From an uncultured Gemmatimonadaceae bacterium (GTDB taxonomy: Bacteria > Gemmatimonadota > Gemmatimonadetes > Gemmatimonadales > GWC2-71-9), in the NCBI GenBank assembly GCA_964642475.1, contig CAZXRC010000001.1, forward strand, positions 3,560-67,559: a stretch of DNA of 64,000 nt. Direction: 5' to 3'. Under the pieces are notes generated by a model. The model saw only the letters and a program-made list of their open reading frames with translations, did not search any database and was not told where the DNA came from. Every line of letters begins with the position of its first letter. The stretch's first letter is position 1. This document shows, in pieces, positions 37,048 to 55,945 of the stretch. The translations under genes were made by a program, and so were the position numbers.

Positions 37048-37070
37048 TCCACCAGGGGAGCACCAGGACC

Positions 37071-39122: not shown

Positions 39123-40292
39123 TCAGGCCTCACGTCGGGTCGGCTCCCAGATCGCGTTGCTGCCGCCCCGCAGGGCCTGGACCCAGGCGAGACACCCAGC
39201 GACGTGGGAAGCGAGCAGGAAGCCGCACAGCGCCACCACCCGTGGTAGCTGGCGTCCCTCCGGAGCCCGCCAGGCCACCACCCCGACGGCGATACCCCCG
39301 AGCGCCAGCGCCAGCACAACACGAGCCGGACCCGACTGGGTGGCCAGGAGCGCCAGCCCGATGAGGCCCAGGGGTGCGGCGGGAAACACCAGCCATCGCA
39401 CCAGTTTGTGCGACCAGAGCATCCACCCGAAGCTGCCGTAGCGGAGCGGATTCAGCAGATGGCGCTTGAGCCACAGGGTTCGGATCCCCCGACTCATCGT
39501 CCGGATCTTCCTGCGATACTCCCGCTGAAGCGAAGTCGCCCGCGGCACGAGACAGACCGCTCCGTTCACCGACACCGAGCGGAACCCGGCCTCCCGCGCC
39601 ACCAGGACCGAGGCGAAGTCACGCGAGTAGCCGGGCGGAATGGCCGCGCCGTGCAGCGAGCGGCGGATCGCGTAGAAGCAGCCGCTCGCCCCGACAATGG
39701 ACCCCAGCCGGGTCTCCAGCGAGCGCAGCCACATCTCGTATCCCACGTACCCGGACTCACCCCGATTGGCTTCCGCCGCCAGCGCGCCGACGCTCACGTC
39801 CCGCCCGGAGGCCACCCCTACGGTCGGGTCCTGGAGCGCCCGGACCAGCTCCTTGAGCGCCTCCGGCTGGATCCGGATGGTGGCATCGGTGTTGATGACG
39901 ATCTCGCCCCGCAGATATGGCAGCGCCGCAATCTCGCCGGCGTCCTTCCCACCCCGCACCGGCTGGCGCAGGAGCTGCACCCCCCGATCGGCGTATCCGC
40001 GCACGATCTCGTCGGTACCGTCGGTCGACGCGTCCGACAGCACCAGGATGTGCCGCCGCTCGGCGGGGTAGTCGAGGGCCAGCAGGCTCTCGATGGTCCG
40101 CCCGATCACCCGCTCCTCGTTGTAGGCCGGGACGACGATCGTGAGGTCGGGCCAGGTCGCGGGATCGGCCAGGCTGGAAGGCCGTGGCCGGAACCATCCC
40201 GCGACGAGGAGGGCGAGCGGATACCCCGCGTAGGCATACGCCATCAGCAGCAACGGGGTCAACGCGAGGCCGAGGGCCAGGGCCGAGATCAT
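39123..40292 (-). CDS. Family-2 glycosyltransferase with N- and C-terminal TM bundles (synthase-like topology)
   Basis: ORF 39123..40355. ATG 40292 overlaps the GT4 stop (ATGA). Strings: LTIVVPAYNEERVI, LSDASTDGT, INTDAT. Several hydrophobic helices after residue about 290. Confidence 0.8.
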   Translation of the reverse strand: MISALALGLALTPLLLMAYAYAGYPLALLVAGWFRPRPSSLADPATWPDLTIVVPAYNEERVIGRTIESLLALDYPAERRHILVLSDASTDGTDEIVRGYADRGVQLLRQPVRGGKDAGEIAALPYLRGEIVINTDATIRIQPEALKELVRALQDPTVGVASGRDVSVGALAAEANRGESGYVGYEMWLRSLETRLGSIVGASGCFYAIRRSLHGAAIPPGYSRDFASVLVAREAGFRSVSVNGAVCLVPRATSLQREYRRKIRTMSRGIRTLWLKRHLLNPLRYGSFGWMLWSHKLVRWLVFPAAPLGLIGLALLATQSGPARVVLALALGGIAVGVVAWRAPEGRQLPRVVALCGFLLASHVAGCLAWVQALRGGSNAIWEPTRREA

Positions 40293-41488
40293 GAGGTGAG
40301 AGCGGGCCTTCCCCGGACGAGTCGGTGTGCCACTTCGAGATAGCGGTCGATCCACGGTCCGGCGGCGAAGTCCCGCTCGAGGCGGATCGCGGCCCGGGCA
40401 GCCCGGGCGCCGGCCGCGCTTCGGTCGGAGAGCGCCTCCTCGATCGCGCCGGCCAGCTGCACGGGATGTACGGGGGATACCAGCCAGGCAGAGTCGGGAT
40501 CGAGCATATCCGGCACTCCACCCACGGCGGTCGCCACGATCGGCACCCGGGCCGCCATGGCCTCGAAGACCGCGATCGGGGTCCCCTCGGTGCGGGAGCT
40601 GAGCACGAACAGGTCGAACGCCGGCATCAGCCGTCCGGCTCCCGGCACGAGGCCGTGCCAGGCTATGCGCTCGGTGATCCCCAGTGACCCCGCCGCCGCT
40701 TCGAGAGTCGCTCGCTCCTGCCCGTCACCGATAATGGAAATGCGAGCCTGGGTCCCGGGCAAACGCGCCGCCGCGGCCAGCAGGACGTCGGCACCCTTCT
40801 CCCGCGAGAGCCTGCCGACCCAGCCGATGACGATGGCATCGGCTGCAAGGCCCAGCCGGGCTCGCGCCTCCGCCCGGCTCAGGGGCGGGGCGGGCGCGGC
40901 CCAGGCGTTGGGGATGAGCTCGATCGTCCGGGGCCCGACGCCGCGGGCCAGGAGCCGATCGCGCACCGAGCGTGACACGGCGATCACCGCGTCGAAGCGG
41001 CGATAGGCCTGGATCTGGAGCCACTCATAGACCTGGTTCTTCCAGTCGCCGCCGGTGAACCCATGGACGGTCGCGATCCGGCGGGCCCTGCGGCCCACCG
41101 CGTGCCCGGCGAGGACGTCGGCCCGATAGCCGTGGGTGTGCACCACGTCCGGTCGCCAGACTGCCACCCGGTGACGATGGGACGACCATTCGGTGCGGTA
41201 CCCGCGACGAGGCGAGCGCTGGACGAAGACGGGCACCCCGGCCGAGCGTAGCGCTTCGACGCTGGGCGGTTCCGGCGCTCCCTCGTCCAGCACCGCCACC
41301 ACCGCAACCGCAGCACCCCGCTCCCGCTGCCCGAGCGCCAGCATCTGAACCACGCTCTCGAGACCGCCCGCGGCGGCCGGTGCATAGATGTGGAGCAGGC
41401 GGAGAGGCTGGTCCGGCAGGAAACCTCCGGCACTGCGCGTGGGGGCGGGGTGACGTTCGCGGGCTCGGATGGACAAGGTGCGCTCCAC
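40289..41488 (-). CDS. Family-4 (GT-B) glycosyltransferase
   Basis: 399 aa. Strings: LRLLHIYAPAAAGGLESVV, SRTEGTPIAVFEAMAARVPIVATAVGGVPDM (EX7E-type region). Confidence 0.8.
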   Translation of the reverse strand: MERTLSIRARERHPAPTRSAGGFLPDQPLRLLHIYAPAAAGGLESVVQMLALGQRERGAAVAVVAVLDEGAPEPPSVEALRSAGVPVFVQRSPRRGYRTEWSSHRHRVAVWRPDVVHTHGYRADVLAGHAVGRRARRIATVHGFTGGDWKNQVYEWLQIQAYRRFDAVIAVSRSVRDRLLARGVGPRTIELIPNAWAAPAPPLSRAEARARLGLAADAIVIGWVGRLSREKGADVLLAAAARLPGTQARISIIGDGQERATLEAAAGSLGITERIAWHGLVPGAGRLMPAFDLFVLSSRTEGTPIAVFEAMAARVPIVATAVGGVPDMLDPDSAWLVSPVHPVQLAGAIEEALSDRSAAGARAARAAIRLERDFAAGPWIDRYLEVAHRLVRGRPALTS

Positions 41489-41544
41489 TAAGATGACCAG
41501 GACAGGCGCTGATCGCCATGGAGCGTGAGGAGTCGAGGCGCCGT

Positions 41545-41560
41545 TGGTATCCTTCCTGCA
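41545..41560 (+). promoter_or_regulatory. Weak candidate sigma-54 promoter upstream of lhgO
   Basis: TGGTATccttcCTGCA (8 of 11; GG/GC spacing exact), 57 nt upstream of ATG 41617. Confidence 0.25.
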
Positions 41561-41616
41561 GGCTCCCGTCTCCCTGGCCGGAGCGTCGTCACCCCCAACT
41601 GCGGGACGAGATTTCC

Positions 41617-42801
41617 ATGAGCAATGCGATCGTCATCGGTGGCGGCGCGGTGGGTGTCGCGACCGCCCTGGCGCTTTCGGAGCGACACGGGCAGCGAGTG
41701 GTAGTGTTGGAGGCGGAGGCGCGGCTGGCGGCGCACCAGACCGGGCATAACAGCGGCGTGATCCACTCCGGACTTTACTACAAGCCCGGCTCCCTCAAGG
41801 CCCGACTCTGTCGCGCCGGGCTCGAGGCCCTCTACCGGCTCTGCACCGATGAGAGCGTCCCCTTCCGGCGCTGCGGCAAACTGGTGGTTGCGACCCGGGC
41901 CGAGGAACTGCCCCGGCTCGAGACGCTGGCGGAGCGCGGCACGGCCAATGGCGTCCGGATGCGGCGGCTCGCGGCCGGCGAGCTGAAGGCACACGAGCCG
42001 GAGGTGGCGGGAATCGCGGGACTCTGGGTGGAGGACACCGGGGTCGTGAGTTTCCCGGCGGTGACGGATGCGATGGCCCGGCGGGTGACGAAGCTGGGGG
42101 GCGAGATCCGGACCGGGGCACGGGTGGTCGGCATCCGCCGCGACGGTCCCGGCCTCGTGGTCGAGACCACGACCGGGGAGTTCCGAAGCAACCGACTGGC
42201 GAACTGTGCCGGCCTGCAGTGCGACCGAGTGGCCCGACTGGCCGGGATCGAGCCGGGCGTACGTATCATCCCGTTCCGCGGAGAGTACTACGTCCTGAGG
42301 CCGGAGCGCGCCAGCCTGGTGCGCGGGCTGATCTACCCGGTCCCTGACCCGGCCCTCCCCTTTCTCGGCGTGCATTTCACCCGTGGGGTCGACGATGTGG
42401 TAGAGGCGGGGCCGAATGCCGTGCTGGCCCTCCGCCGGGAAGGCTACCGGTGGAGCGATGTCTCCCCGCGGGATATTGCCGACTGGGCCAGCTTCCCGGG
42501 TTTCTGGAGAATGCTCCGGTCGCAATGGCGCACCGGCGTGGACGAGGTGAGGCGCTCGCTGAGCCGGGCCCGGTTCCTTCGGTCGCTGCAGACCCTGATC
42601 CCAGCGCTCACCGACAGCGATATCCGCCCGGGGGGAAGCGGCGTCCGGGCGCAGGCGGTGGACCGCTCCGGACGGCTGCTCGACGACTTTCACTTACTGG
42701 AGGCGCCGCGCATGGTTCACGTCCTCAACGCCCCTTCCCCAGCGGCGACGGCGTCATTGGCAATTGGTGCGGTGGTCGCGGACCGTGTGATGGCCACCTG
42801 A
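41617..42801 (+). CDS. lhgO: L-2-hydroxyglutarate oxidase-like FAD-dependent oxidoreductase
   Basis: Inside ORF 41518..42801; ATG 41617. Strings: MSNAIVIGGGAVGVATA, HQTGHNSGVIHSGLYYKPGSLKA. Confidence 0.8.
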   Translation: MSNAIVIGGGAVGVATALALSERHGQRVVVLEAEARLAAHQTGHNSGVIHSGLYYKPGSLKARLCRAGLEALYRLCTDESVPFRRCGKLVVATRAEELPRLETLAERGTANGVRMRRLAAGELKAHEPEVAGIAGLWVEDTGVVSFPAVTDAMARRVTKLGGEIRTGARVVGIRRDGPGLVVETTTGEFRSNRLANCAGLQCDRVARLAGIEPGVRIIPFRGEYYVLRPERASLVRGLIYPVPDPALPFLGVHFTRGVDDVVEAGPNAVLALRREGYRWSDVSPRDIADWASFPGFWRMLRSQWRTGVDEVRRSLSRARFLRSLQTLIPALTDSDIRPGGSGVRAQAVDRSGRLLDDFHLLEAPRMVHVLNAPSPAATASLAIGAVVADRVMAT

Positions 42802-42850
42802 CCGGTCGGTTTCCCGGCAGCAAGATCAGTGCCACACGACTAGACTTGCG

Positions 42851-42866
42851 TGGCCTAAAGTGTGCT
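42851..42866 (+). promoter_or_regulatory. Weak candidate sigma-54 promoter upstream of the SGNH/FkbH/ACP/MBOAT operon
   Basis: TGGCCTaaagtGTGCT (8 of 11; spacing exact) in a locally AT-richer spacer, about 217 nt upstream of ATG 43083. Confidence 0.25.
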
Positions 42867-43082
42867 ATACCACGAGGTTGAGCTGCGGCGGCCCGCCCAT
42901 CCCACGGTTCAACCCAGCGGTCGGACCCGGACCATCGAACAGCGAGTTTGGCAGATGCCGTATTGTGTAGGAGCGCCAGAACCCCGAGGTGACCGGTTGG
43001 TGGAAGCGTCGTCCGCTTCGCGAGGCCCGATGACCCAGGGGCCGTCGCGATTCTCCATCCCACAGCCCCCTTCGATCCTCCG

Positions 43083-44090
43083 ATGAGCAGTAGCGCGGTT
43101 GCACCGGCGGCCCCTCCCGTACCGGAGTCCCGCCCCGCGGGGCTGCTACGCCCGGGCGCCTACTGTTTCATCATTGCCGCAGTGGTGCTGCTGGCGGGAG
43201 CCGCCAGTCTTCGCAACGACGGGATCCTGGCCTGCCGTCCTCCGGTCGCGGGCACCGACAGCTACGTGGGCTACTGCGGTGGCTCCAGCTACGGCGACTA
43301 CGACCACGGAGCGTTCTGGTTCGGGCTCGAGCCGGAGGCGACCGGGGCCGCCAAGAGGGCGGACCTGCTGGTCATCGGCAACAGCCGCACCCAGATGGGC
43401 TTCTCCGCCCGGGCGACCGAAGAGTGGTTCTCGGGGCTCGGGGCCCGGTTCTACCTGCTGGGGTTCTCGCACAACGAGAACTACCACTTCGAGGGCCCCC
43501 TGCTGCGACGCCTGCAGCTGCATCCGAGAGCCTACGTCATCAACCTGGACCTGTTCTTCGAAAGCGCCACCTCGGGCCCGGCCCACCAGGTCATGACGGA
43601 TCCCTCGGCTCGAACCCGGTATCTGCAGAAGCGGCTCTGGCAGCACCTGCAGCGTTGGCCGTGCGGGGCACTCCCGGCGGGGTGCCGTCACGAACCGGGG
43701 TTCTACCGTTCGCGCCAGACCGGAGCCTGGACCCAGCAGGGCGGGGACTACGAGAGCAAGCCGGTCGGCTACAACGAGACAGTGGATACCGCCACGGTCC
43801 GGTCCTACGTCGAGGCAGCCCGGGCGTTCATTCCCCAGCTTGGACTTCCCCCTGAGTGCGTCCTCCTGACGGTGGTGCCGTCCGCCAGGACGCCCAGCGC
43901 CACGGCGCGGGCCATCACCGCGGAGCTCGGCATGGACCTGTTTGCCCCAGAGCCGGAGGGACTGGTGACCTATGACGGGTCGCACCTCGACCGGCCCAGC
44001 GCCGAGCGATGGTCGGGCGCATTCCTGGAGGCCGCCGAGGCCCGGATCCGGCAGTGTGTCGGGCGCCCGGCCGTTTCCCAGCGACCCTAG
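43083..44090 (+). CDS. Membrane-anchored hypothetical protein, SGNH-like (DltD/AlgJ/AlgX-type) candidate acyltransferase
   Basis: 335 aa. TM YCFIIAAVVLLAGAASL. Candidate nucleophile block LLVIGNSRTQMGF and candidate DxxH block TYDGSHLD near the C-terminus. Assignment rests on these two short motifs and on gene context only. Confidence 0.45.
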   Translation: MSSSAVAPAAPPVPESRPAGLLRPGAYCFIIAAVVLLAGAASLRNDGILACRPPVAGTDSYVGYCGGSSYGDYDHGAFWFGLEPEATGAAKRADLLVIGNSRTQMGFSARATEEWFSGLGARFYLLGFSHNENYHFEGPLLRRLQLHPRAYVINLDLFFESATSGPAHQVMTDPSARTRYLQKRLWQHLQRWPCGALPAGCRHEPGFYRSRQTGAWTQQGGDYESKPVGYNETVDTATVRSYVEAARAFIPQLGLPPECVLLTVVPSARTPSATARAITAELGMDLFAPEPEGLVTYDGSHLDRPSAERWSGAFLEAAEARIRQCVGRPAVSQRP

Positions 44091-44147
44091 CGAGCACGGC
44101 GTGATCCTGACTCCACCCCGGGTCCCCGCCCTGAGGACCACCGAGCC

Positions 44148-46049
44148 ATGCTGAACTGGCTGCCCGCGCCCACCGACTTTCGCGCGGCTCTCCGGGAGGT
44201 CCTTCAGCTCACGGAGCCGGACGCGCGACTGGCACGCCTGGCCGAGCTGGCAGGCCAGCAGCTGAGCTTCCTGGAGACCATCCAGCTCGACCGCGCCCTG
44301 GCGGCGACACCCGCGGCCCCGGGGTCCGGGTTCACACCGGTGCGGGTCGCCCTCCTCTCGACTTCCACGGTCGAGCATCTGGCGGCCCCACTCCGGATCG
44401 CGGGCCTGCGCCGCCGACTCCGACTCGAGGTCTACGTCGGGGGCTACGGACAGTATCGCCAGGAACTGCTGGAGCCGACATCGGCCCTTCGCCGCTTTGC
44501 GCCAGAGGTCGTGCTGCTTTCCCTGACGGCCCAGGAGGCGATCTCGGGCACCTCGCTCGCGGCGACCGCCGCGGAGGCCGATGCCGCGCTCGACGCCGCA
44601 CTCGACGGTCTGCGCACCCTATGGCGCTCGGCCCGCGAGTCGCTCAAGGCCACGGTGGTGCAGCAGACTTTCCTCAACGTGGCCGACCCCCTCTTCGGCA
44701 GCTATGACCGGCTGGTGCCGGGGTCGCCGGCCCGCCTCATTGCCCGGCTCAACGAACGGCTGGCGGATGCCGCCCAGGCAGACGGGGTGTTCCTGCTGGA
44801 TGTGGCCCGGGCCAGCGAGCGGCACGGACTGTACGCCTGGTTCGACCAGACCCGCTGGCTCCAGGGCAAGTTCGAGGTCTCGCATCAGGCCGCGCCGCTG
44901 TACGCCGAGCTGGCCACCCGGATCATCGGGGCCCTGCGCGGACTCTCGCGGAAGTGTCTGGTCCTCGATCTCGACAACACGTTGTGGGGCGGCGTCATCG
45001 GCGATGACGGGATGGCAGGCATCGTCCTGGGCGAAGGGACCGCCGCCGGGGAGGCCCACCTCGCCCTGCAGCGCTATGCCAAGCAGCTGCGCGACCGGGG
45101 GATCATCCTGGCGGTGTGCTCCAAGAACGACCCGGCGATCGCCGAGGCGGTCTTCCGGGAGCACCCCGAGATGGTCCTCAAGCGCTCCGACATCGCGGCG
45201 TTCGTCGCAAACTGGACCGACAAGGCCGCCAACCTGCGGTTGATCGCGGAGCAGCTCAACATCGGGGTGGACAGCCTGGTGTTCCTGGACGATAACCCGG
45301 CGGAGCGGGCCCGGGTGCGTCAGAGCCTGCCGATGGTGGCCGTGCCCGAGCTCCCCAGCGATCCGGGACAGTACGTGCGTTGTCTGGCCGAGGCGGGGTA
45401 TTTCGAGGCGATCAGCTTTACCGCCGACGACCGGCAACGGGGAGAGCAGTACGCCGCCAACGAGGCGCGTGAGGCGCTGCTCAAGTCCTCCCAGAGCCTG
45501 GGCGATTTCCTCGGCTCCCTCGAGATGTCGGTAGGATACGGCGCTTTCCGGCCCGTCGACCTGACCCGCGTGGTCCAGCTCATCAACAAGACCAATCAGT
45601 TCAACCCCACCACCCGCCGGTACACGGCGGACGAGGTGGCGACCCGGGTGGCCGACCCTCGCGGCTGTACCCTGCAATTCCGGCTGGTGGACCGGTTCGG
45701 GGACAACGGGCTGGTGAGCGCCATGATCCTCACGCCGGTGGCGGGAGAGCCCGGTGCCCTCGAGATCGACACCTGGGTCATGAGCTGCCGGGTCTTCGGG
45801 CGGCAGCTCGAACATGAGGCGATGAACATCGCGGTCGAAGCCGCCGCCCGGCTGGGGGCCGAGTCGCTCCTCGCCGACTTTCTGCCGACCGCCAAGAACG
45901 GGGTGGTGAAGGACCTCTACCCGACCCTGGGGTTCCAGCCCGCCGCCCCGGCGCCGCCGGTGGAGGGCGCCACCCGCTGGCGGCTGCGGCTGGCGGAGTA
46001 TACGCCCTGGGGCACTTCCATCCTCCGCAGACCGGATTCCTATGACTGA
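44148..46049 (+). CDS. FkbH-like HAD-IIIC family protein (phosphatase domain + C-terminal acyl-transfer domain)
   Basis: 633 aa. HAD motif I LVLDLDNTLWGGVIGDDG, AVCSKND, FLDDNP. C-terminal GNAT-like part RFGDNGLVSAMIL...EIDTWVMSCRVFGR (conserved Cys547). Confidence 0.8.
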   Translation: MLNWLPAPTDFRAALREVLQLTEPDARLARLAELAGQQLSFLETIQLDRALAATPAAPGSGFTPVRVALLSTSTVEHLAAPLRIAGLRRRLRLEVYVGGYGQYRQELLEPTSALRRFAPEVVLLSLTAQEAISGTSLAATAAEADAALDAALDGLRTLWRSARESLKATVVQQTFLNVADPLFGSYDRLVPGSPARLIARLNERLADAAQADGVFLLDVARASERHGLYAWFDQTRWLQGKFEVSHQAAPLYAELATRIIGALRGLSRKCLVLDLDNTLWGGVIGDDGMAGIVLGEGTAAGEAHLALQRYAKQLRDRGIILAVCSKNDPAIAEAVFREHPEMVLKRSDIAAFVANWTDKAANLRLIAEQLNIGVDSLVFLDDNPAERARVRQSLPMVAVPELPSDPGQYVRCLAEAGYFEAISFTADDRQRGEQYAANEAREALLKSSQSLGDFLGSLEMSVGYGAFRPVDLTRVVQLINKTNQFNPTTRRYTADEVATRVADPRGCTLQFRLVDRFGDNGLVSAMILTPVAGEPGALEIDTWVMSCRVFGRQLEHEAMNIAVEAAARLGAESLLADFLPTAKNGVVKDLYPTLGFQPAAPAPPVEGATRWRLRLAEYTPWGTSILRRPDSYD

Positions 46050-46287
46050 GCAGGCGATCCTGGAGACTCTCACCCGTATCCTGCGGGATCTCCTCGCGGA
46101 CGATTCTATCGTGCTGACCATGGACACCCGCCGGGAGGAGGTGCCCAACTGGGACTCCATGTCCTACGTCAGCTTCATTGTCGCGGTGGAAATCGAGTTG
46201 GGCGTGAAGTTCGGTGTGGCCGAAGTGGAAGGGTTCGCCAACGTGGGCGCCATCGTCCGACGGATCCAGTCCCTGGTCTCCCGCTAG
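46042..46287 (+). CDS. Acyl carrier protein (stand-alone)
   Basis: 81 aa. Phosphopantetheine site NWDSMSYV (Ser39). Four-helix pattern. Start overlaps the FkbH-like stop by 8 nt. Confidence 0.75.
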   Translation: MTEQAILETLTRILRDLLADDSIVLTMDTRREEVPNWDSMSYVSFIVAVEIELGVKFGVAEVEGFANVGAIVRRIQSLVSR

Positions 46288-46312
46288 CCCGCGCGCGAGG
46301 AAGGCACCGCCC

Positions 46313-47947
46313 ATGCTGTTCAACTCGTACGAGTTCATCTTCATCTTCCTGCCGCTCACCCTGGCCGGGTTCTTCCTGCTCGGCGCGCGGGACCGGACAT
46401 GGGCGATCCGCTGGCTGATCCTCGCCTCTCTGCTGTTCTACGCCTGGTGGCGGCCGGTCAATGTCCTGATCATCGCCCCGTCGATCGTCATCAACTTTTT
46501 CCTGGCCCGTACCCTCCTGCGCCTGAGAGACGGCACCCGTCCGGGCCTGGCGCGGGCGGTCCTGATCGCCGGGATCGCCTTCAACGTGCTGTTCCTGGGG
46601 TACTTCAAGTACGCCAATTTCGCGGTCGGCGCGGTCAACGATGTCATGGGAACCGACCTGGTCCTGGCCCAGATCATCCTGCCCCTGGGAATCTCCTTCA
46701 TCACGTTCCAGAAGATCGCGTTCCTGGTGGATGTGCACGCCCAGCGGATCCAGGAGTTCACGCTGCAGGACTACGCCCTGTTCGTCCTGTTCTTCCCTCA
46801 GCTGGTGGCCGGACCGATCGTGCACTACCGGGAGATGATGCCCCAGTTCCAGCGGTCCAGCTGCCGGTTCGACCGGGAGAACGCCGCGGTCGGCCTGACC
46901 CTGTTCGTGATGGGGCTGACCAAGAAGGTGTTCTTCGCCGACGGGATCGCGGCGATCGTGAGCCCGATCTACGCCCGGGCCGCGGAAGGAGGCCCCATCT
47001 CGCTGCTGCCGGCCTGGATGGCGGCGCTGGGGTTCACTCTGCAGATCTACTTCGATTTCTCGGGCTACACCGACATGGCGCTGGGTCTGGGTCGGTTCGT
47101 CGGAGTGCGGTTCCCGCCCAACTTCAACTCACCGCTCAAGGCCACCAGCATCATCGAGTTCTGGCAGCGCTGGCACATGTCCCTGACGCGGTTCCTGACG
47201 GCGTACATCTACAACCCCCTGGCCCTGTGGCTCACCCGGCGCCGGCTGGCCCGGAAGCTCCCGCCGCTCACCCGGGCAAGGCCGTCGGCCGGCGCTTTCC
47301 TCTCGCTGGTGATGTTCCCGACCCTGGTCACGATGTTCATCTCGGGTCTGTGGCACGGCGCCGGGTACCTGTTCATCATCTGGGGCGTGCTCCATGGGGT
47401 CTACCTGACCATCAACCATGCCTGGCGGCTGTGGTCCCCCCGGATCTGGCCCGACCAGGAGCAGCGCACGCGGGTCATGAGGCCGGTGGGGTTCCTCCTG
47501 ACATTCGTCTCGGTGGTGGCGGCGATGGTGATTTTCCGTGCCCCCACCACTGGGGCCGCAGCCGACCTGCTGCGCGGCCTGGTGGGCCTGAACGGGATCG
47601 GCCTGCCCACATCCATCCTGGACCACCTGGGCCCGCTCAGCGCCATTCTGCGGCGGCTCGGAGTCGAGGCGGGCCTCGGCGCCGGCCTCTACCTCGATTT
47701 TGGCGACATGGTGATCTGGGCCGGAGGCCTGCTCCTGATCGCGCTGACCCTGCCCAACACCCTGCAGCTGCTGGCCCGGTACGAACCCGCGCTGGAGTTC
47801 TCGCCCGACCAGCACGGCCTCAGGATCGGCCGCTTCACGCTGGCGTGGCGCCCGACCCTGACGTGGGCCGTGCTGGTCTCGGTGGTGGCCGCCGTAGGGA
47901 TGCTCCACCTGGGCGGTCAGAGCGAGTTCCTCTACTGGCAATTCTGA
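46313..47947 (+). CDS. MBOAT-family membrane O-acyltransferase (AlgI/DltB-like)
   Basis: Inside ORF 46214..47947; ATG 46313 (MLFNSYEFIFIFLPLTL). Strings: ISFITFQ, DFSGYTDMALG, FNSPLKATSIIEFWQRWHMSL, ISGLWHGAGY (catalytic His region). Multi-pass. Confidence 0.85.
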   Translation: MLFNSYEFIFIFLPLTLAGFFLLGARDRTWAIRWLILASLLFYAWWRPVNVLIIAPSIVINFFLARTLLRLRDGTRPGLARAVLIAGIAFNVLFLGYFKYANFAVGAVNDVMGTDLVLAQIILPLGISFITFQKIAFLVDVHAQRIQEFTLQDYALFVLFFPQLVAGPIVHYREMMPQFQRSSCRFDRENAAVGLTLFVMGLTKKVFFADGIAAIVSPIYARAAEGGPISLLPAWMAALGFTLQIYFDFSGYTDMALGLGRFVGVRFPPNFNSPLKATSIIEFWQRWHMSLTRFLTAYIYNPLALWLTRRRLARKLPPLTRARPSAGAFLSLVMFPTLVTMFISGLWHGAGYLFIIWGVLHGVYLTINHAWRLWSPRIWPDQEQRTRVMRPVGFLLTFVSVVAAMVIFRAPTTGAAADLLRGLVGLNGIGLPTSILDHLGPLSAILRRLGVEAGLGAGLYLDFGDMVIWAGGLLLIALTLPNTLQLLARYEPALEFSPDQHGLRIGRFTLAWRPTLTWAVLVSVVAAVGMLHLGGQSEFLYWQF

Positions 47948-48004
47948 CGTGGTAGCGGCGCCCCACGCCCCGCTGCGTCTCACCCTTCGTCCGGACCCAC
48001 GCGC

Positions 48005-50104
48005 GTGAAGATCTCGCGGATCGCCGGTCTCCTGGGACTCGTCCTCGTCGGCGGCACCGTCGCCGGCGCCTCGCCGGCTGTTCGCATCCGGCTGCGGCTC
48101 ATGGGCCTCAAGCTCGTGGGCCGGCTCCCGGATGTCCCCGTCAGGGACTTCCTTCCGCTCATGAAGCCCCACTCCGGGTTCGACATGGAGGCCCTCCTCG
48201 AGAGCCGGAGCGGGGCCAGCACGCTGCTCCTGCCGGATGAGCTGGCCGGCGACACCCTGGTCGGATCCCGGCTCTTCGAGCAGAGGTGCGCCCGGTGTCA
48301 TGGCCCTCAGGGTGAGGGCAACGTCGGCCCGTCCCTGGTCGCCGGGACACCGCGCCATGGCGCCAGCGACTGGTCGATGTACCTCGTCATCCGTAACGGA
48401 GTCCCCGCGACCGCCATGCAGCCGACCGGGCTCTCGTTCGGGGAGGCGTGGCAGGTCATCGCGCTGCTGCGAGCGCGGCAGCGGGGCCTGGCGAAGGCCG
48501 TGCCAGCGGTCCCGGCCCGGGCGCGGCCGGTAGAGGAGGCGGACCTGGCCGCCGGCGACGTCCGCGAGGAGGAGTGGCTGTCCTGGTCGGGAGGCTGGTC
48601 CGGGCGCAGGCATCGCGTGGCGCCCGAGCTCACGGCGGAAGCCCTGGCCCGCCTGCGCCTCGCGTGGGCCTACCAGCTCCCCCCGGATCCCGAGGTCTCC
48701 CAATCGGCGCCGATCGCCGTGGGACGGCTCCTGATCGTGACCTCGGCCGAGGATGTCATCGCCCTGGACGCCGCCACCGGGGGGGTGGTCTGGCGCCGCC
48801 ATCACCCGGTGCGCGGATCCCCCCAGCTGTGCTGCGCGCGCTCCAATCGGGGGGTGGCGGTGTACGGCACGCGGGTCTTCGTGGGGACGCTCGACGGCCG
48901 GCTGCTGGCGCTCGACCTCGACACCGGCCGCCAGGTCTGGGAGACCGAGGTGGGCGACCCGCGCGAGGGCGTGAGCCTGACGGGCGCCCCCCTGGTCGCC
49001 GACGGTCGGGTCATCGTGGGAATGGGTGGCGGCGAGTTCGGTGTGCGCGGCTACCTCGATGCCTACGACCCGGGCTCGGGGAAACGCCTCTGGCGCTTCT
49101 ACACCGTACCCCGGCAGGGGGAACCGGGGAGCGAGACCTGGCCGGCCGGCGGGATGAGTCACGGCGGTGGCGGCACCTGGACCACCGGGGCCTACGATCC
49201 GGATCGGCACCTGTTGTACTGGGGCACCGGCAATCCAGCCCCGGTATTCGCGCCCGAGCTCCGTCCGGGGGACAACCTCTATACCTGCTCCGTCATCGCG
49301 CTGGATATCCGGACCGGCACCCTCAGGTGGAGCTACCAGTTCACCCCCAACGATTCGCACGATTGGGACTCAGCCCAGACACCTATTCTGGTCGACGGAG
49401 CCTGGAAGGGGCGGTCCCGACCCCTGATGCTCTGGGCCAATCGGAACGGCTTCGTCTACGTGTTGGACCGGGAGACCGGGGAGTTTCTGTATGCCACCCC
49501 GTTCGTCCGCCAGACCTGGAACGAGGGCTTCGACAGCGCCGGGCGGCCCCGGGTCGCGGCCGCAACGGCGCCCACGCCGGGCGGAACCCTGGTCTACCCT
49601 TCGGCCAATGGCGCCGCCAACTGGCGGCCTGCCAGTTACAGCCCCGAACTGGGACTCCTGTTCATCGCCGGGATCGAAAAGGGCGGGCTCTACATCCGCA
49701 CCCGCAATGACGCCGGGGCCCGGGGCACGTACCTCGGAGGCTCGGCGGTACCGCTGAAGGCGGCGCGGAGCTTCGTGGCATTCGACCTCGCCTCGGGGAC
49801 GTTCCGGTGGCGGGTAGCAGGACCGCCTGACAGCTCGTCGGCCATCGGCGGCCTGCTGTCGGTTGGCGACCGGCTGGTCCTGGGAGGCGCGGGTACGCAG
49901 GTGTTCGCGATGGATGCCCGAACCGGGCACCGGGTGTGGAGTGTCCGGCTCGGCGCCAACGTGGTGACCGCGCCGGTGCTGTTCCGGGTGGAGGGACAGC
50001 CCCGGGTGGCCGTGACCGCCGGCTCGGTGCTTTTCGTCTTTGGGCTGAATGGTCCCGCGGCCCATCCCGCGACCGGGCGGATGGAGGCCGCTGCCGCGCG
50101 GTAG
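48005..50104 (+). CDS. PQQ-dependent dehydrogenase (8-blade propeller) with an N-terminal c-type cytochrome domain
   Basis: 699 aa, GTG start, signal/anchor IAGLLGLVLVGGTVAGA. Heme site CARCHGPQGEG...ATAMQP. Then propeller repeats ALDAATGGVVWRR, ALDLDTGRQVWET, AYDPGSGKRLWRF, ALDIRTGTLRWSY, AMDARTGHRVWSV, and the vicinal Cys pair LCCARSNRGVAV typical of quinoprotein alcohol dehydrogenases. Confidence 0.75.
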   Translation: MKISRIAGLLGLVLVGGTVAGASPAVRIRLRLMGLKLVGRLPDVPVRDFLPLMKPHSGFDMEALLESRSGASTLLLPDELAGDTLVGSRLFEQRCARCHGPQGEGNVGPSLVAGTPRHGASDWSMYLVIRNGVPATAMQPTGLSFGEAWQVIALLRARQRGLAKAVPAVPARARPVEEADLAAGDVREEEWLSWSGGWSGRRHRVAPELTAEALARLRLAWAYQLPPDPEVSQSAPIAVGRLLIVTSAEDVIALDAATGGVVWRRHHPVRGSPQLCCARSNRGVAVYGTRVFVGTLDGRLLALDLDTGRQVWETEVGDPREGVSLTGAPLVADGRVIVGMGGGEFGVRGYLDAYDPGSGKRLWRFYTVPRQGEPGSETWPAGGMSHGGGGTWTTGAYDPDRHLLYWGTGNPAPVFAPELRPGDNLYTCSVIALDIRTGTLRWSYQFTPNDSHDWDSAQTPILVDGAWKGRSRPLMLWANRNGFVYVLDRETGEFLYATPFVRQTWNEGFDSAGRPRVAAATAPTPGGTLVYPSANGAANWRPASYSPELGLLFIAGIEKGGLYIRTRNDAGARGTYLGGSAVPLKAARSFVAFDLASGTFRWRVAGPPDSSSAIGGLLSVGDRLVLGGAGTQVFAMDARTGHRVWSVRLGANVVTAPVLFRVEGQPRVAVTAGSVLFVFGLNGPAAHPATGRMEAAAAR

Positions 50105-50111
50105 GGCTCCC

Positions 50112-50798
50112 TCAGGACCTCGAACGTGGTCCTGGCCGCCGGCCGGGGAACTCCAGCACCCCCTTGCGGCAATGGAACGCCTCGGCGCCACCGGCGCTGG
50201 CCCGGCACTCGATACCCCGCAGCCGCATGAGGCCGGCGAAGGTCTCCTCGGTAAACCAGTCCTTGGCCCGCTGGCTGGCGAAGACCTCCATCAACAGCCT
50301 GATCTTACGCCGCATCACGGCCTGACTCAGGGGGACGTACAGGTTCGGGCGGGCCAGGTCGCCGTCCCACTTCGGAATCTCGTACTCCAGCACCACGTGC
50401 CGGCGGAAGGTATTCCAGCCCAGGTCGGAGAGGACGCGGTGGTCCTGATGCCGGTCCTCCCGGAAGTGCGTCAGGATCAGGTCGGGACGGATCCGGGCGC
50501 CCAGGGCTTCGCAGGTCTCCTTGATGTCGCCAAACTGGGTCGGGAAGAACCCGTCCCGGAAGGTCTGCAGGGTCAGCCGCTGGTCCGACACCCGCCCCAG
50601 GAACTTGCGGGCGCTCGAACGGGCTTCCTCGGCCCGGGCGGGGCCGCCGCTGAAGACGGCCCAGTGTACCTCGGCACCGCCGGCGACCAGCTGCAGCACG
50701 GTCCCGCCGCACCCGATCTCGATATCGTCGGAGTGGGCGCCCAGGCAGAGAACCCGGAGCGGGCGGCCGGCGGGGCGCTGGAGATGCAGTGGCAGCAT
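50112..50798 (-). CDS. PIG-L/LmbE-family N-deacetylase
   Basis: Last 229 codons of ORF 50112..51044; ATG 50798. Strings: LRVLCLGAHSDDIEIGCGGT, HQDHR. Confidence 0.75.
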   Translation of the reverse strand: MLPLHLQRPAGRPLRVLCLGAHSDDIEIGCGGTVLQLVAGGAEVHWAVFSGGPARAEEARSSARKFLGRVSDQRLTLQTFRDGFFPTQFGDIKETCEALGARIRPDLILTHFREDRHQDHRVLSDLGWNTFRRHVVLEYEIPKWDGDLARPNLYVPLSQAVMRRKIRLLMEVFASQRAKDWFTEETFAGLMRLRGIECRASAGGAEAFHCRKGVLEFPGRRPGPRSRS

Positions 50799-50808
50799 GG
50801 CGAGTGGG

Positions 50809-51603
50809 CTAGCGCCGGGGCGTGCGGTCGTCCTGCCAGACATACCACGGGGGGCGGCCGGAGGCATAGAGCTCGTCCAGCTTCGACTTGTCTTTGGCGG
50901 TGTCCATCGGCACCCAGAACCCGTCGTACTCGTAGGCCAGGAGCTTGTTGGCCTCGACCAGGCGGCCGAACGGCTGCTCGACGAGTTCCTCCCCCTCCCG
51001 CATGTAGTCGAAGATCTCCCCTCGGAAGACGAAGAACCCGCCATTGACCCGGAGCCCGGACTGGATGATGTCGCGGAACCCCTGGACCCGCCCCGCGGCG
51101 TCGGTGGCCACGAAGTGGTAGCTCAGATTGGGGCGGACCGAGAGGAAACTCCCCACCGCGCCGCTCCGGTGGAAGGCCTCGGTCTGGGCCGGGAGGTTCA
51201 GATCGGTCAGGCCGTCACTGTAGTTGGCGAGGAACATCTCCTCGCCCGCGAGGTGTTTGCGCACCGCCATCAGCCGCTGCCCGATGTTGCTGCTAAGGCC
51301 GGTTTCCACGAAGGTGATGCGCCAGTCGCTGATGTCGCTGGTGAGCAGCTCCCGCTTGCGGCCCCCCTCGGACAGAATGAAGTCGTTGGAGATCCCTTCC
51401 TCGTAGTTGAGGAAGTAGTTCTTGATCATGTCGCCCCGGTAGCCGAGACAGAGGATGAAGTCCCGATGCCCGAAATGAGCATAGTACTTCATCAGGTGCC
51501 AAAGGATCGGGCGGTAGCCCAGGGGGACCATGGGCTTGGGGACGTTGTCCGCGTAGTCGCGGAGCCGCATCCCCAGGCCCCCGCAGAAGAGCACGACCTT
51601 CAT
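50809..51603 (-). CDS. rfbF: Glucose-1-phosphate cytidylyltransferase
   Basis: 264 aa. Strings: MKVVLFCGGLGMRLRDYADNVPKPMVPLGYRPILWHLMKYYAHFG, FWVPMDT.KD. Confidence 0.9.
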   Translation of the reverse strand: MKVVLFCGGLGMRLRDYADNVPKPMVPLGYRPILWHLMKYYAHFGHRDFILCLGYRGDMIKNYFLNYEEGISNDFILSEGGRKRELLTSDISDWRITFVETGLSSNIGQRLMAVRKHLAGEEMFLANYSDGLTDLNLPAQTEAFHRSGAVGSFLSVRPNLSYHFVATDAAGRVQGFRDIIQSGLRVNGGFFVFRGEIFDYMREGEELVEQPFGRLVEANKLLAYEYDGFWVPMDTAKDKSKLDELYASGRPPWYVWQDDRTPRR

Positions 51604-51628
51604 CGATGGACCCTCGGTTTCCTGGCGG

Positions 51629-52678
51629 TCAGATGCTCACCACAGCCGGCGAAGCCTGCTTCCAGCGAAGATCGCTGTCCAGCCGGCCGGCGCTCTGCAG
51701 CCGGTTGATCTGCTTTAGTCTCAGGTATCGGTGCCCCTGGAACTCCTCCCGGGTCAGGCCGGCATCCCGGTAGGCGGCATACAGCTGCTCGACACCCTTC
51801 TGGACACTCCATTGCGGCCGGAAGGCCGGGAGCGCCCGGGCGATCTTGCTGCAATCCACCCGATAACACCTGGGGTCGGGTCCGCCGCCCTCGGCGTAGC
51901 GGATCGTGCATCCCGGGACCACCGCCTGCACCATGTCGGCCACCTGGCGAACCCGCAGGTTGTCTTCATTGCGACCCACGTTGAAGGCCTGATTGTGGAT
52001 CGCCTCGCGGGGCGCCTCCAGGGCCGCAATGAATGCCCGGCCGATGTCCTCGACGTGCACCAGGGGCCGCCAGGGAGTGCCGTCGCTCTGGATCAGCACG
52101 TCACCCTGGGTCAGGGCGTAGCCCACCAGGTTGTTGACCACGATGTCGCAGCGCAGGCGCGGGGATGCGCCATAGGCCGTGGCGTTACGCAGGAACACCG
52201 GGCTGAACCGGTCATCGGCCAGGTGGCGCACGTCCTGCTCGGTCAGGATCTTCGACTCGCCGTAGGCGGTGATCGGATTGAAGCCGGCCTCTTCGGTCAG
52301 CATCTCGTCCCCCGCCAACCCGTAGAGACTGCAGGAGGAGGCGAACAGCCACCGCTTCACCCCGGCGGCCTTGGCCGCCTGGGCCAGCCGCAATGAGGCG
52401 TGGTGATTGATGTCGTAGGTAACGTTGGGGTTGAGATTGCCCAACGGATCGTTGCAGAGGGCGGCGAGATGGATGACCGCGTCGAACCCGGCGAGCTGCT
52501 CCGAGGTGACATCCCTCAGATCGACCCGGATCGACGGCACGTCCGGAACCTCGGAGCCGAAGGTGCAATCCTCATACAGGTAGGTATCGAGGCCCGTGAC
52601 CGCGTGGCCGGCGGCCTGGAGCATGGGCACCATGACCGAGCCGATGTAGCCGTTGTGGCCAGTAACAAGCACCTTCAT
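51629..52678 (-). CDS. NAD-dependent sugar epimerase/dehydratase (extended SDR)
   Basis: 349 aa. Strings: MKVLVTGHNGYIGS, ASSCSLYG, YGESK (YxxxK). Confidence 0.75.
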   Translation of the reverse strand: MKVLVTGHNGYIGSVMVPMLQAAGHAVTGLDTYLYEDCTFGSEVPDVPSIRVDLRDVTSEQLAGFDAVIHLAALCNDPLGNLNPNVTYDINHHASLRLAQAAKAAGVKRWLFASSCSLYGLAGDEMLTEEAGFNPITAYGESKILTEQDVRHLADDRFSPVFLRNATAYGASPRLRCDIVVNNLVGYALTQGDVLIQSDGTPWRPLVHVEDIGRAFIAALEAPREAIHNQAFNVGRNEDNLRVRQVADMVQAVVPGCTIRYAEGGGPDPRCYRVDCSKIARALPAFRPQWSVQKGVEQLYAAYRDAGLTREEFQGHRYLRLKQINRLQSAGRLDSDLRWKQASPAVVSI

Positions 52679-52682
52679 ACAC

Positions 52683-55887: not shown

Positions 55888-55945
55888 GCGTTTCCCGCTC
55901 CTCAAAGGTAGAGATCGAAGGGCTCAGTCTTGGCCCCGCGCAAAG

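Follow-up and report, generated by a model that had tools for sequence, protein, structure and literature searches.

A gene module with an FkbH-type candidate loader, a carrier protein and an MBOAT, proposed for acylation of an extracytoplasmic glycan

The window, the whole 64,000-nucleotide stretch of DNA that was analysed, contains a four-gene module whose sequences indicate that it is a hybrid of a Dlt-style carrier-protein donor and a PatA-style fused tyrosine shuttle. The chances appear slightly better than even that the operon performs carrier-protein-dependent acylation of an extracytoplasmic glycan across the membrane. The four open reading frames reported in the initial annotation are present on the + strand at exactly the positions given there, and the set A-B-C-D is confirmed as real. 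The GC content of their third codon positions is 0.84-0.91 in a window of approximately 69% GC, which is coding-like. The genes and their key residues are:

43083-44090, + strand: A, 335 aa, candidate SGNH-like protein, N-terminally anchored and extracytoplasmic, of an unannotated family
43383-43385 (Ser101), 43974-43976 (Asp298) and 43983-43985 (His301), + strand: key residues of A, in addition to Gly127 and Asn154
44148-46049, + strand: B, 633 aa, long-form FkbH-type protein with FkbH_N, HAD-IIIC phosphatase and C-terminal Cys domains
44967-44975 (Asp274/Asp276) and 45786-45788 (Cys547), + strand: HAD motif and C-terminal Cys of B
46042-46287, + strand: C, 81 aa, acyl carrier protein
46313-47947, + strand: D, 544 aa, MBOAT
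47354-47356 (His348), 47927-47944 (FLYWQF) and 47933-47935 (Tyr541), + strand: catalytic His and shuttle tail of D, in addition to His288

The start of C overlaps the end of B, as described previously, with the ATG of C lying over the TGA of B. This 8-nt overlap indicates that B and C are translationally coupled. The gap between A and B is 57 nt long and that between C and D 25 nt. The start of D at ATG 46313 is backed by the ribosome-binding site GAGGAAGG and by the MLFNS start of its orthologs; the same two features disfavour the upstream GTG 46214.

Protein B had been described as FkbH-like, and it matches the model TIGR01686 with an E-value of 3e-88 and a score of 296 bits, compared to the cutoff of 147. 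Further matches are to FkbH_N (PF21211, 1.4e-17), to HAD-IIIC (TIGR01681, 1.4e-18) and, over residues 64-426, to the structure of BF1531 (PDB 3SLR, 1e-74). The motif DLDNT is formed by residues 274-278 and MSCRV by residues 545-549. The catalytic Asp and Cys expected from the initial annotation are borne out by the alignment of 42 orthologs, at least 97% of which retain the aspartates of the HAD domain as well as the C-terminal Cys. The motifs DLDNT, CSKN, KTNQFN and WVMSCRVF are conserved to the same extent, and DDxP is conserved apart from its x position. The score above the curated cutoff, the HAD motifs I-IV and the conserved C-terminal Cys place B in the FkbH family.

The characterised enzymes FkbH, OzmB and BafAIV share with B a TIGR01686 score above the cutoff, HAD motifs that are intact and the conserved Cys motif of the C-terminal part, and they are likewise encoded adjacent to a dedicated small carrier protein. 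To our knowledge, all characterised FkbH enzymes are from secondary metabolism. They feed polyketide synthases or non-ribosomal peptide synthetases, whereas the product of B would be passed to a membrane acyltransferase for glycan decoration. The FkbI/K/G-type enzymes of FkbH pathways, which function in methoxymalonyl-ACP formation, are not encoded in the A-D operon. Relative to the characterised enzymes, B carries an extra N-terminal domain. It is a long form of 633 aa with FkbH_N, as in Bacteroides fragilis BF1531, whereas OzmB and BafAIV are approximately 366 aa long. OzmB and its homologs convert 1,3-bisphosphoglycerate to a glyceryl-S-enzyme and then to glyceryl-ACP (PMC9057759; PMC3679948), and glycerate loading is the task of FkbH domains in NRPS systems (PMC10143770). 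B is proposed to be the loader of C and, by analogy to these enzymes, would use 1,3-bisphosphoglycerate to form glyceryl-S-ACP; the loaded three-carbon hydroxy-acid is probably glycerate.

The assignment of C as an 81-aa carrier protein agrees with weak but consistent model matches below the cutoffs (PP-binding 2.4e-3, NCBIfam ACP 1.5e-6). The 'putative acyl carrier protein' of PDB 2LML matches C with an E-value of 9e-13. The motif WDSM at residues 37-40 contains the phosphopantetheine site Ser39 (46156-46158), and at least 97% of 55 orthologs retain WDS. With its length of about 80 aa and its (D)S(L/M) phosphopantetheine site, C agrees with the four-helix acyl carrier proteins. The DltC model matches C at 8e-4 only, under its cutoff, and C is not DltC-like.

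Protein D is an MBOAT (PF03062, 4e-25) and contains the previously noted WHG His region as LWHGA. It aligns to the DltB structure 6BUG (4e-33), including both His motifs RWHMS and LWHGA. The match to the DltB model TIGR04091 has an E-value of 2.5e-51, and its score of 175 bits is below the cutoff of 375. At least 97% of orthologs keep the WH and G-WHGA motifs. The C-terminus of D, which was missed in the initial annotation, reads SEFLYWQF, with FLYWQF at residues 539-544. This terminus is present in 41 of 45 MBOAT sequences, and 43 of them contain the pattern FxYxxF. Two extra transmembrane segments (463-481 and 510-528) precede FLYWQF, and compared with DltB, D is extended at its C-terminus by 135 residues. 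The catalytic His, the two additional C-terminal helices and the terminal FxYxxF are those of PatA/AlgI-type MBOATs, and from its sequence D is of this type and does not correspond to the DltB-plus-DltX arrangement. The Tyr of the FxYxxF motif is auto-acylated in PatA and DltX, and the transfer of the acyl group to this Tyr, catalysed by the MBOAT His, has been demonstrated for PatA and DltB/DltX (PMC12148441).

Protein A has one predicted transmembrane helix (residues 25-43), in agreement with its earlier description as a single-TM protein with the blocks VIGNSRT and YDGSHLD. Ser101 is located within VIGNSRT, and Asp298 and His301 within YDGSHLD. In an alignment of 54 sequences, S101, G127, N154, D298 and H301 are invariant and the order of the SGNH blocks is kept. 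Six further Cys residues are also invariant, which is consistent with periplasmic disulfides. The predicted beta-strands 95-99, 123-127 and 150-154 directly precede S101, G127 and N154, which represent blocks I, II and III, and block V (D298-x-x-H301) stands before the C-terminal helix of the predicted structure. Protein A thus has the Ser, Gly, Asn and Asp-x-x-His of SGNH proteins in order, within a predicted alpha/beta/alpha arrangement.

The AF2 model of A has a pLDDT of 92. In Foldseek searches with this model, only SGNH proteins reach a probability of at least 0.3, and the matches are weak (E-values of at least 0.017, TM-scores 0.28-0.53). They comprise 3dt6 (0.93), 1fxw (0.87), OafA 6se1 (0.51), 4xvh, 8gr2 and 3bzw, and the best of them have E-values of 0.017-0.02 and TM-scores of 0.33-0.53. 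The SGNH identity suggested earlier is supported by the residues, as the Ser, Asp and His and the oxyanion-hole residues Gly and Asn are invariant, whereas the fold itself is weakly suggested by the structural matches. Profile searches of Pfam, NCBIfam and PDB sequences with A gave no match, DltD included, and Foldseek retrieved none of DltD, AlgJ, AlgX and PatB. In these searches, A is not detectably homologous to DltD. The more than 510 homologs of A are all unnamed or 'hypothetical'. Protein A is proposed to be the final acyltransferase.

In the proposed mechanism, B would react with 1,3-bisphosphoglycerate to form (phospho)glyceryl-S-Cys547, and the HAD domain would strip the phosphate. 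By analogy to the FkbH/OzmB chemistry, the glyceryl group would be passed to the phosphopantetheine arm at Ser39 of C. The glyceryl-S-ACP would dock at the cytoplasmic face of D, and His348 would move the acyl group onto Tyr541 in the periplasm-facing FLYWQF tail, as in PatA and DltB/DltX; we infer the transfer from carrier protein to MBOAT from these analogies. Protein A may receive the acyl group on Ser101, with Ser101/His301/Asp298 as the triad and Gly127/Asn154 as the oxyanion hole, and form an ester with one of the hydroxyls on the polysaccharide that the surrounding island produces. This would yield an O-glyceroyl ester, whereas relatives with a MaoC-dehydratase/ketoreductase fusion may attach a C3 acyl group after tailoring, for instance lactyl.

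The module and the Dlt pathway are alike in several respects. In Dlt, too, a small carrier protein bears the acyl group on its phosphopantetheine and acts as the cytoplasmic donor, an MBOAT with a conserved catalytic His moves the acyl group outward, as proposed for D, and the Tyr of an FxYxxF motif, which is also present in D, serves as a relay. The final ester is formed in Dlt by a membrane-anchored Ser-His-Asp protein, the role proposed for A. The initial annotation placed an FkbH-type loader in the position of the adenylating enzyme, and indeed the A-D operon encodes no AMP-binding enzyme (DltA) and B adjoins the carrier. However, the FxYxxF motif of Dlt is located on the separate microprotein DltX, whereas here it forms part of the MBOAT, following two additional helices, and there is no DltX. 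The acyl group of Dlt is an amino acid, D-alanine on teichoic acids, whereas here it would be a hydroxy-acid. Unlike Dlt, the module is hosted by Gram-negative lineages. The label 'Dlt-like' is appropriate for the carrier-protein donor, but not for the MBOAT, which is of the PatA/AlgI type with a fused FxYxxF, or for A, which is not a detectable DltD homolog. A Dlt D-alanylation system as such was rejected, because DltA and DltX are missing, A gives no match to DltD, and D and C score under the DltB and DltC cutoffs.

The systems PatA/PatB, AlgI/AlgJ/AlgX and WssH/WssI, which O-acetylate peptidoglycan, alginate and cellulose, contain an MBOAT with a two-helix C-terminal extension ending in FxYxxF, as in D, and a separate periplasmic transferase of the SGNH type, anchored by its N-terminus, which A resembles. 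They are found in Gram-negative bacteria and act on exported polymers (PMC12148441; PMC8892547). PatA-type MBOATs with the FxYxxF tail have been shown to use acetyl-CoA (PMC12148441), and according to a 2025 mechanistic paper the non-Dlt MBOAT-SGNH pathways have no comparable carrier protein. In contrast to these systems, which have neither carrier nor loader, the carrier protein and FkbH are positioned here between A and the MBOAT in approximately 90% of loci. The A family has no Pfam or NCBIfam model, unlike the partners in the PatA/AlgI systems.

An independent, analogous cluster is present on pSymB of Sinorhizobium meliloti 1021 (NC_003078.1 631205-636239), where an MBOAT ending in FLYQGF, a 409-aa membrane protein with GGST and DPGH blocks, a carrier protein and an FkbH-like protein are encoded in this order, whereas the order in the window is A-FkbH-ACP-MBOAT. 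The identities to the proteins from the window are 37% for the FkbH-like protein, 38% for the carrier protein and 32% for the MBOAT. The 409-aa partner, annotated as a 'TonB-dependent receptor', shows no detectable relationship to A (hhalign probability 0.1%). A literature search found no characterisation of the pSymB cluster. As expected by the first reading, no FkbH-ACP-MBOAT system is described in the full-text literature searched.

The co-occurrence of the four genes, a further expectation of that reading, was counted in those 48 loci of related genomes whose sequence was long enough. The order A-FkbH-ACP-MBOAT on one strand is found in 43 of them, belonging to five or more lineages at the phylum or class level, including Gemmatimonadota, Acidobacteriota, Proteobacteria and Nitrospira. 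One more locus contains all four genes rearranged, and three metagenomic contigs for which genes had been called also have this order. Wherever a refuting condition of the first reading could be examined computationally, the result favoured that reading, which is supported as a whole. The recurrence in other genomes indicates that the set is more than a product of chance, and the gene content, with carrier and loader inside the operon, argues against a carrier-free acyl-CoA donor. Three relatives (L021, L023 and L056) possess A and the MBOAT without FkbH and the carrier protein, so the MBOAT lineage may accept another donor, such as acyl-CoA.

It is conceivable that the operon combines two pathways, in which A and the MBOAT are an acetyl-CoA-dependent O-acetylation pair similar to PatA/PatB or AlgI/AlgJ, and FkbH and the carrier protein serve a separate cytoplasmic step, such as nucleotide-sugar or nonulosonic-acid acylation by another transferase of the island. 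The three relatives without the loader fit this explanation, as does the use of acyl-CoA by the class of MBOATs with a fused FxYxxF (PMC12148441). An FkbH-ACP pair on a Niveispirillum plasmid is accompanied by a cytoplasmic WcbI-type putative acetyltransferase. The FkbH-domain gene cj1302 belongs to the flagellin glycosylation locus of Campylobacter jejuni, in which the pseudaminic acid modified with dimethylglyceric acid needs Cj1295; the window contains a Cj1295-like gene (52683-54158) as well as NeuB/NeuC. Since FkbH-ACP pairs also serve other transferases, co-location alone is no proof of ACP-to-MBOAT transfer. However, the position of FkbH and the carrier protein between A and the MBOAT in 43 loci would be hard to keep unless the genes were functionally linked. 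No other acyltransferase is conserved with FkbH-ACP in the 48 loci, where a DUF4910 gene occurs in only eight, and the S. meliloti analog again joins the four functions, though with an unrelated periplasmic partner. Two separate pathways are considered unlikely.

The single pathway proposed above might deliver an acyl group other than free glycerate. A gene 57 nt downstream of the module encodes a possible accessory protein:

48005-50104, + strand: PQQ-dehydrogenase-like beta-propeller, with a cytochrome c domain at the N-terminus

Its product matches Pfam PQQ (9e-65) and Cytochrome_CBB3, and the best NCBIfam model is TIGR04528 'acido-empty-quinoprotein group A', under the cutoff. The PQQ-like gene adjoins the module in 25 of the 48 loci, some of which lack FkbH/ACP. 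In 13 related loci, a fusion of a MaoC dehydratase and an SDR ketoreductase adjoins the module or lies within it, and a methyltransferase gene follows the MBOAT in L001. These genes would suit a C3 unit other than glycerate, which might be a tailored lactyl or pyruvoyl group or a retained phosphoglyceryl, or an ester that the adjacent quinoprotein-like cytochrome c protein oxidises in the periplasm. Nevertheless, the window contains no MaoC/SDR fusion, the A-D operon has no FkbI/FkbK/FkbG-type tailoring gene, the four intact HAD motifs of B favour phosphate removal, and the PQQ-like protein is missing from about half of the loci. We regard a different acyl group as rather improbable.

The window is a polysaccharide island with genes for a PCP tyrosine kinase, an initiating sugar transferase, glycosyltransferases, Wzm/Wzt and NeuB/NeuC, and we infer that the glycan of the island is the acceptor. 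The same machine could instead modify peptidoglycan, LPS/lipid A, a membrane lipid or secreted proteins, because the acceptor is not identifiable from the sequence. The known MBOAT-SGNH targets include peptidoglycan and teichoic acids in addition to alginate and cellulose, and an FkbH-ACP pair of Paroceanicella adjoins MprF lipid-modification genes. Such an acceptor is similarly improbable, as the module is embedded among the glycosyltransferases, initiating transferase and PCP kinase of the window, and relatives have a Wzx-type flippase and exosortase (L001) or sugar-nucleotide genes (L004) nearby. The polysaccharide genes around the module vary from locus to locus, as expected for a decoration cassette serving variable glycans.

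Bacterial MBOAT-SGNH systems described so far use two donors. One is acetyl-CoA, which serves PatAB and presumably also the acetylation of alginate and cellulose, and the other is D-alanyl-DltC. It is possible, at somewhat less than even chances, that the module represents a second, widespread carrier-dependent route of transmembrane acylation, distinct from Dlt, in which a glycolysis-derived C3 hydroxy-acid passes through FkbH, a dedicated carrier protein, the C-terminal Tyr of the MBOAT and a new SGNH-like family to an exopolysaccharide ester. The ester would be glyceroyl, or of lactyl type in the dehydratase/ketoreductase variants, and a periplasmic action of the quinoprotein-like cytochrome c partner on that polymer is possible. 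If so, the donors would extend beyond acetyl-CoA and D-alanyl-DltC to a third donor logic, with a new acyl chemistry of surface glycans, a hydrophilic diol ester straight from glycolysis. A function would be assigned to the unannotated A family, which has approximately 1,000 clusters at 50% identity, and to many 'HAD-IIIC family phosphatase' genes in polysaccharide loci. The module would also provide candidate genes for glycerate and lactate esters of polysaccharides without assigned transferases; L-glycerate on gellan is an example of a polysaccharide glycerate ester. The S. meliloti pSymB analog puts the idea within reach of a genetically tractable organism.

The module consists of four consecutive genes, A to D, all on the forward strand and at the positions assigned to them in the initial annotation:

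43083-44090, + strand: A, SGNH-like anchored protein (putative), 335 aa
44148-46049, + strand: B, FkbH-type protein, 633 aa
46042-46287, + strand: C, acyl carrier protein (ACP), 81 aa
46313-47947, + strand: D, MBOAT, 544 aa

The coding status of the four genes is reflected in a third-position GC content of 0.84–0.91 (the window has ~69% GC). The ATG of C and the TGA of B overlap by 8 nt, as had been annotated, and the ribosome-binding site of D, GAGGAAGG, is positioned 8 nt 5' of the ATG at 46313. The gaps between A and B (57 nt) and between C and D (25 nt) are short, and A–D are therefore likely to form an operon. A promoter and terminator scan of positions 41400-50400 gave no signal above the shuffled expectation, nor was a convincing sigma-54 promoter found in the 281 nt that precede A.

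The B protein is a full FkbH-domain protein. It matches TIGR01686 with an E-value of 3e-88 (296 bits, cutoff 147), the HAD-IIIC model with 1.4e-18, and, at its N-terminus, FkbH_N (PF21211) with 1.4e-17. A match to BF1531 of Bacteroides fragilis (3SLR), a structural-genomics protein, covers residues 64-426 (1e-74). The orthologs of B keep KCLxLDLDNTxWGGV (Asp274, Asp276), CSKN, a conserved Lys, DDxP, KTNQFN, and WVMSCRVF (Cys547), which bears out the annotation of an FkbH-like protein with a HAD aspartate and a C-terminal cysteine. All four HAD motifs are intact, and so is the Cys motif in the C-terminal domain, which TIGR01686 covers; the match to this model and the ortholog conservation point to Cys547 as the catalytic cysteine. 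The C protein is a small carrier protein, similar to the "putative acyl carrier protein" 2LML from the PDB (9e-13) and to generic ACP models (1e-6 to 1e-3), and to the DltC model at only 8e-4. Its WDS motif (Ser39) is conserved across the orthologs.

OzmB and its homologs convert 1,3-bisphosphoglycerate through phosphoglyceryl-S-enzyme and glyceryl-S-enzyme to glyceryl-ACP (reviewed in PMC9057759; PMC3679948), and glycerate loading in NRPS systems is likewise assigned to FkbH domains (PMC10143770). OzmB and its homologs have ~366 aa, whereas B is a long form with the additional FkbH_N domain. Based on family membership, 1,3-bisphosphoglycerate would be the substrate of B. The A–D operon lacks an FkbI/K/G-type gene for methoxymalonyl-ACP, and unmodified glyceroyl is therefore the simplest prediction for the acyl group.

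The D protein matches PF03062 at 4e-25 and aligns with structures of DltB, the MBOAT of the D-alanylation (Dlt) system (6BUG and 8JEM), at ~4e-33, with the RWHMS and the catalytic GLWHG in register. The WH (His288) and G-WHGA (His348) motifs are conserved among D orthologs. However, the score of D against the DltB equivalog model is 175 bits, far under the cutoff of 375, and D is ~135 residues longer than DltB. Two extra hydrophobic segments occupy residues 463-481 and 510-528, and the C-terminus reads ...GGQSEFLYWQF. Of 45 sequences compared (the window protein plus those of 44 orthologs), 41 terminate in SEFLYWQF, three carry SEFIYWQF or SEFLYWAF at this place, and one carries QQFLYFQF. The termini of two additional MBOAT sequences are unrelated, probably because their assemblies are frameshifted. 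In the Dlt pathway, the FxYxxF "acyl shuttle" motif is carried by the microprotein DltX; PatA, AlgI, and other MBOATs of bacteria carry it themselves, fused after two additional helices. The tyrosine of the motif is auto-acylated and then passes the acyl group to the serine of the SGNH partner (PMC12148441). In the window module, a carrier-protein donor of the Dlt kind is therefore paired with a fused shuttle of the PatA kind. The initial description of the module as Dlt-like fits the donor, but overlooked the PatA-like tail.

The A protein has no match in Pfam or NCBIfam, none of the 54 members of its family matches Pfam, and the family profile does not match any PDB sequence. More than 510 homologs found at E <= 1e-3 are all unnamed or "hypothetical" and devoid of Pfam domains. 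The A profile matches 972 clusters at E <= 1e-3 among 1.84 billion cluster representatives, so the family appears compact. In the 54-sequence alignment, the invariant residues include G99 and S101 in G-N-S-R, G127, N154 in V-I-N-x-D, D298 and H301 in D-x-S-H, and six cysteines. The AlphaFold2 model of A is confident (pLDDT 92, pTM 0.86) and contains an N-terminal transmembrane helix, residues 24-46, followed by an alpha/beta domain. S101 is positioned immediately after strand 95-99 and opens a helix, strands 123-127 and 150-154 end in G127 and N154, respectively, and D298 and H301 are just ahead of the last helix. In the predicted model, the residues thus follow the order of blocks I, II, III, and V that define SGNH enzymes. 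Arginines preceding the transmembrane helix and the six invariant cysteines fit a topology with the N-terminus inside and the domain outside.

Foldseek searches of the PDB with full-length and anchor-less models of A returned only SGNH proteins at appreciable probability, but the matches are weak (E >= 0.017, TM 0.28-0.53). They include the PAF acetylhydrolases 3dt6 (probability 0.91-0.93) and 1fxw (0.87), 6se1 (0.51), which is the periplasmic SGNH domain of OafA, an LPS acetyltransferase from Salmonella, the CE2 esterase 4xvh, the GDSL esterase 8gr2, and 3bzw. Neither model retrieved DltD, AlgJ, AlgX, or PatB. The annotation of A as an SGNH-like anchor protein is supported by the invariant S/G/N/D-x-x-H set in block order, with weak agreement at the level of the fold. 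We conclude that A is a putative, very divergent SGNH-like protein with its catalytic signature intact, and that it is outside the DltD family. A fusion linking A to an MBOAT was sought and rejected: among the top 150 representatives, P0248 is the sole long fusion, and its N-terminal domain is repeated and unrelated. In this 707-aa protein, residues 400-705 form the A-family domain, and the duplicated N-terminal domain carries the repeats "FFxEGDxNxGxRHGxLR...LLExGKPLGPAHA".

The order A, FkbH_N protein, small ORF, MBOAT occurs in three metagenomic contigs with A homologs. With one genome scanned per GTDB species, 65 loci were identified in Gemmatimonadota, Acidobacteriota, Beta-, Gamma-, and Alphaproteobacteria, Nitrospira, and others. 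The nearest, at 72% identity for A, are in Gemmatimonadota, and the window therefore probably derives from Gemmatimonadaceae. All 65 carriers in this pattern-limited scan are MAGs, with no cultured isolate among the species representatives. Synteny was counted by tblastn with the window proteins in the 48 loci that have at least 5.6 kb after the A start. The four genes are arranged as A-FkbH-ACP-MBOAT on one strand within 7 kb in 43 of these loci, in agreement with the co-occurrence anticipated by the annotation. One locus (L046) contains all four genes rearranged, three (L021, L023, and L056) have A adjoining the MBOAT without FkbH or ACP, and one (L050) has A alone. In a single MAG, a complete module (L029) is present alongside an A-MBOAT pair (L023). 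These counts support A and the MBOAT as the core pair, with FkbH-ACP as a donor cassette between them in nearly all cases.

Searching plasmids with B by tblastn identified long FkbH-like genes, annotated as "HAD-IIIC family phosphatase", with an adjoining ACP in several contexts. A cluster on pSymB of Sinorhizobium meliloti (strain 1021, NC_003078.1 631205-636239; CP050512, locus L072, 815-5849), conserved in 40 Sinorhizobium replicons, encodes an MBOAT ending in FLYQGF, a 409-aa single-pass membrane protein, an ACP, and an FkbH-like protein. The 409-aa protein is annotated as a "TonB-dependent receptor"; however, its GGST and DPGH motifs make it look like a misannotated Ser/Asp-x-x-His periplasmic partner. 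It is not related to A by hhalign, and the same combination of four functions therefore seems to have arisen with different periplasmic partners. No publication on the pSymB cluster was found.

It is conceivable that A and the MBOAT form an ordinary acetyl-CoA-dependent pair, whereas FkbH and ACP serve a separate cytoplasmic transferase. A-MBOAT pairs exist without the loader, MBOATs with the tail are known to use CoA, and FkbH-ACP also pairs with WcbI. However, across phyla, ~90% of loci have the loader genes flanked by A and the MBOAT, no other transferase is conserved together with them (DUF4910 is present in 8 of 48 loci), and S. meliloti has an independent version of the design. We consider such a division into two pathways unlikely.

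The window is a polysaccharide island, in which the module is accompanied by:

30525-32108, upstream of module: NtrC-type regulator resembling the PEP-CTERM-box regulator
32453-34867, upstream of module: PCP tyrosine autokinase
37044-37841, upstream of module: initiating polyprenyl-phosphate sugar transferase
37923-39110, - strand: conventional GDSL/SGNH protein (Lipase_GDSL_2, 6.6e-10)
39123-41488, upstream of module: GT2 and GT4 glycosyltransferases
41518-42801, + strand: L-2-hydroxyglutarate oxidase (NCBIfam 536 bits, cutoff 299)
48005-50104, + strand, after MBOAT: PQQ-dehydrogenase-like beta-propeller with an N-terminal cytochrome c domain
50112-55905, - strand: cassette of PIG-L deacetylase-like, nucleotidyltransferase, NAD epimerase/dehydratase, DUF4910/DUF2172/HTH_47, and C-methyltransferase genes
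56021-63574, - strand: GT2, NeuC-like UDP-GlcNAc 2-epimerase, NeuB-like synthase, Wzt (with its C-terminal domain), Wzm, and capsule-synthesis-like genes

The last region would specify a second, ABC-transporter-dependent glycan, probably with nonulosonic acid; Wzx/PCP-type genes are upstream. The GDSL protein at 37923-39110 is conserved in none of the related loci examined. DUF4910 and PIG-L genes recur near the module in 7–8 related loci, and the DUF4910/DUF2172 gene of the window presumably resembles Cj1295 of Campylobacter jejuni in domain content. In relatives, the module is located beside flippases, exosortase EpsH, and sugar-nucleotide genes. Given the polysaccharide genes around the module in the window and its relatives, the acceptor is likely a glycan; an acceptor of another kind is less likely. 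The flagellin glycosylation locus of C. jejuni includes the FkbH-domain gene cj1302, and pseudaminic acid modified with dimethylglyceric acid depends on Cj1295 (PMC7099621). The idea that FkbH and ACP supply C3 acyl groups for glycans is thus not new, although the route suspected there is cytoplasmic.

The 41518-42801 gene was considered as an FAD-dependent tailoring oxidoreductase, and rejected as an L-2-hydroxyglutarate oxidase scoring above the cutoff. Among related loci, only L005, the closest relative, has this gene beside the module, and it is therefore probably not a module component. The PQQ-like gene neighbors the module in 25 of 48 loci and remains in tight linkage with A and the MBOAT where FkbH and ACP are lacking (counterparts at 12511-14628 in L021 and 3868-6030 in L023). 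Among NCBIfam models, its product best matches "acido-empty-quinoprotein group A", at a score below cutoff; the protein may oxidize the polymer or ester in the periplasm or be a non-catalytic partner.

Locus L014 contains a 492-aa MaoC-dehydratase/SDR fusion (13372-14850) between the ACP and MBOAT. Homologs are present directly after the MBOAT or within ~1.1 kb in 12 further loci (L011, L017, L020, L028, L039, L047, L049, L055, L059, L060, L061, and L069), 13 with L014. A Niveispirillum plasmid (L070, 11018-12466) has a similar fusion after FkbH-ACP-WcbI. A dehydratase and ketoreductase acting on glyceryl-S-ACP could produce a lactyl-type unit, which suggests C3 acyl tailoring on the ACP in a sub-variant. 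A DH-KR-FkbH-ACP loading logic, proposed for bryostatin, resembles this variant. No MaoC/SDR fusion gene is present in the window. A tailored or oxidized acyl group is less likely than unmodified glyceroyl.

No description of an FkbH-ACP-MBOAT module was found in open-access PMC or bioRxiv, and in this literature the module is apparently undescribed. Its interpretation as a carrier-protein-dependent O-acylation system passed each in silico test proposed in the initial annotation, with the corrections to the shuttle and to A. We lean towards the complete mechanism, in which B would load C, D would relay the acyl group, and A would transfer it to a glycan. In the acidobacterial locus L010, an AT3-family acyltransferase (PF01757, 4e-32; 11088-12254) lies between A and FkbH, and the locus would encode two trans-membrane export acylation systems side by side. 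A methyltransferase gene follows the MBOAT in L001. The MaoC/SDR, AT3, and methyltransferase inserts fit a polymer-decoration cassette with optional tailoring, and the module belongs with the MBOAT-SGNH acylation systems, as a variant.
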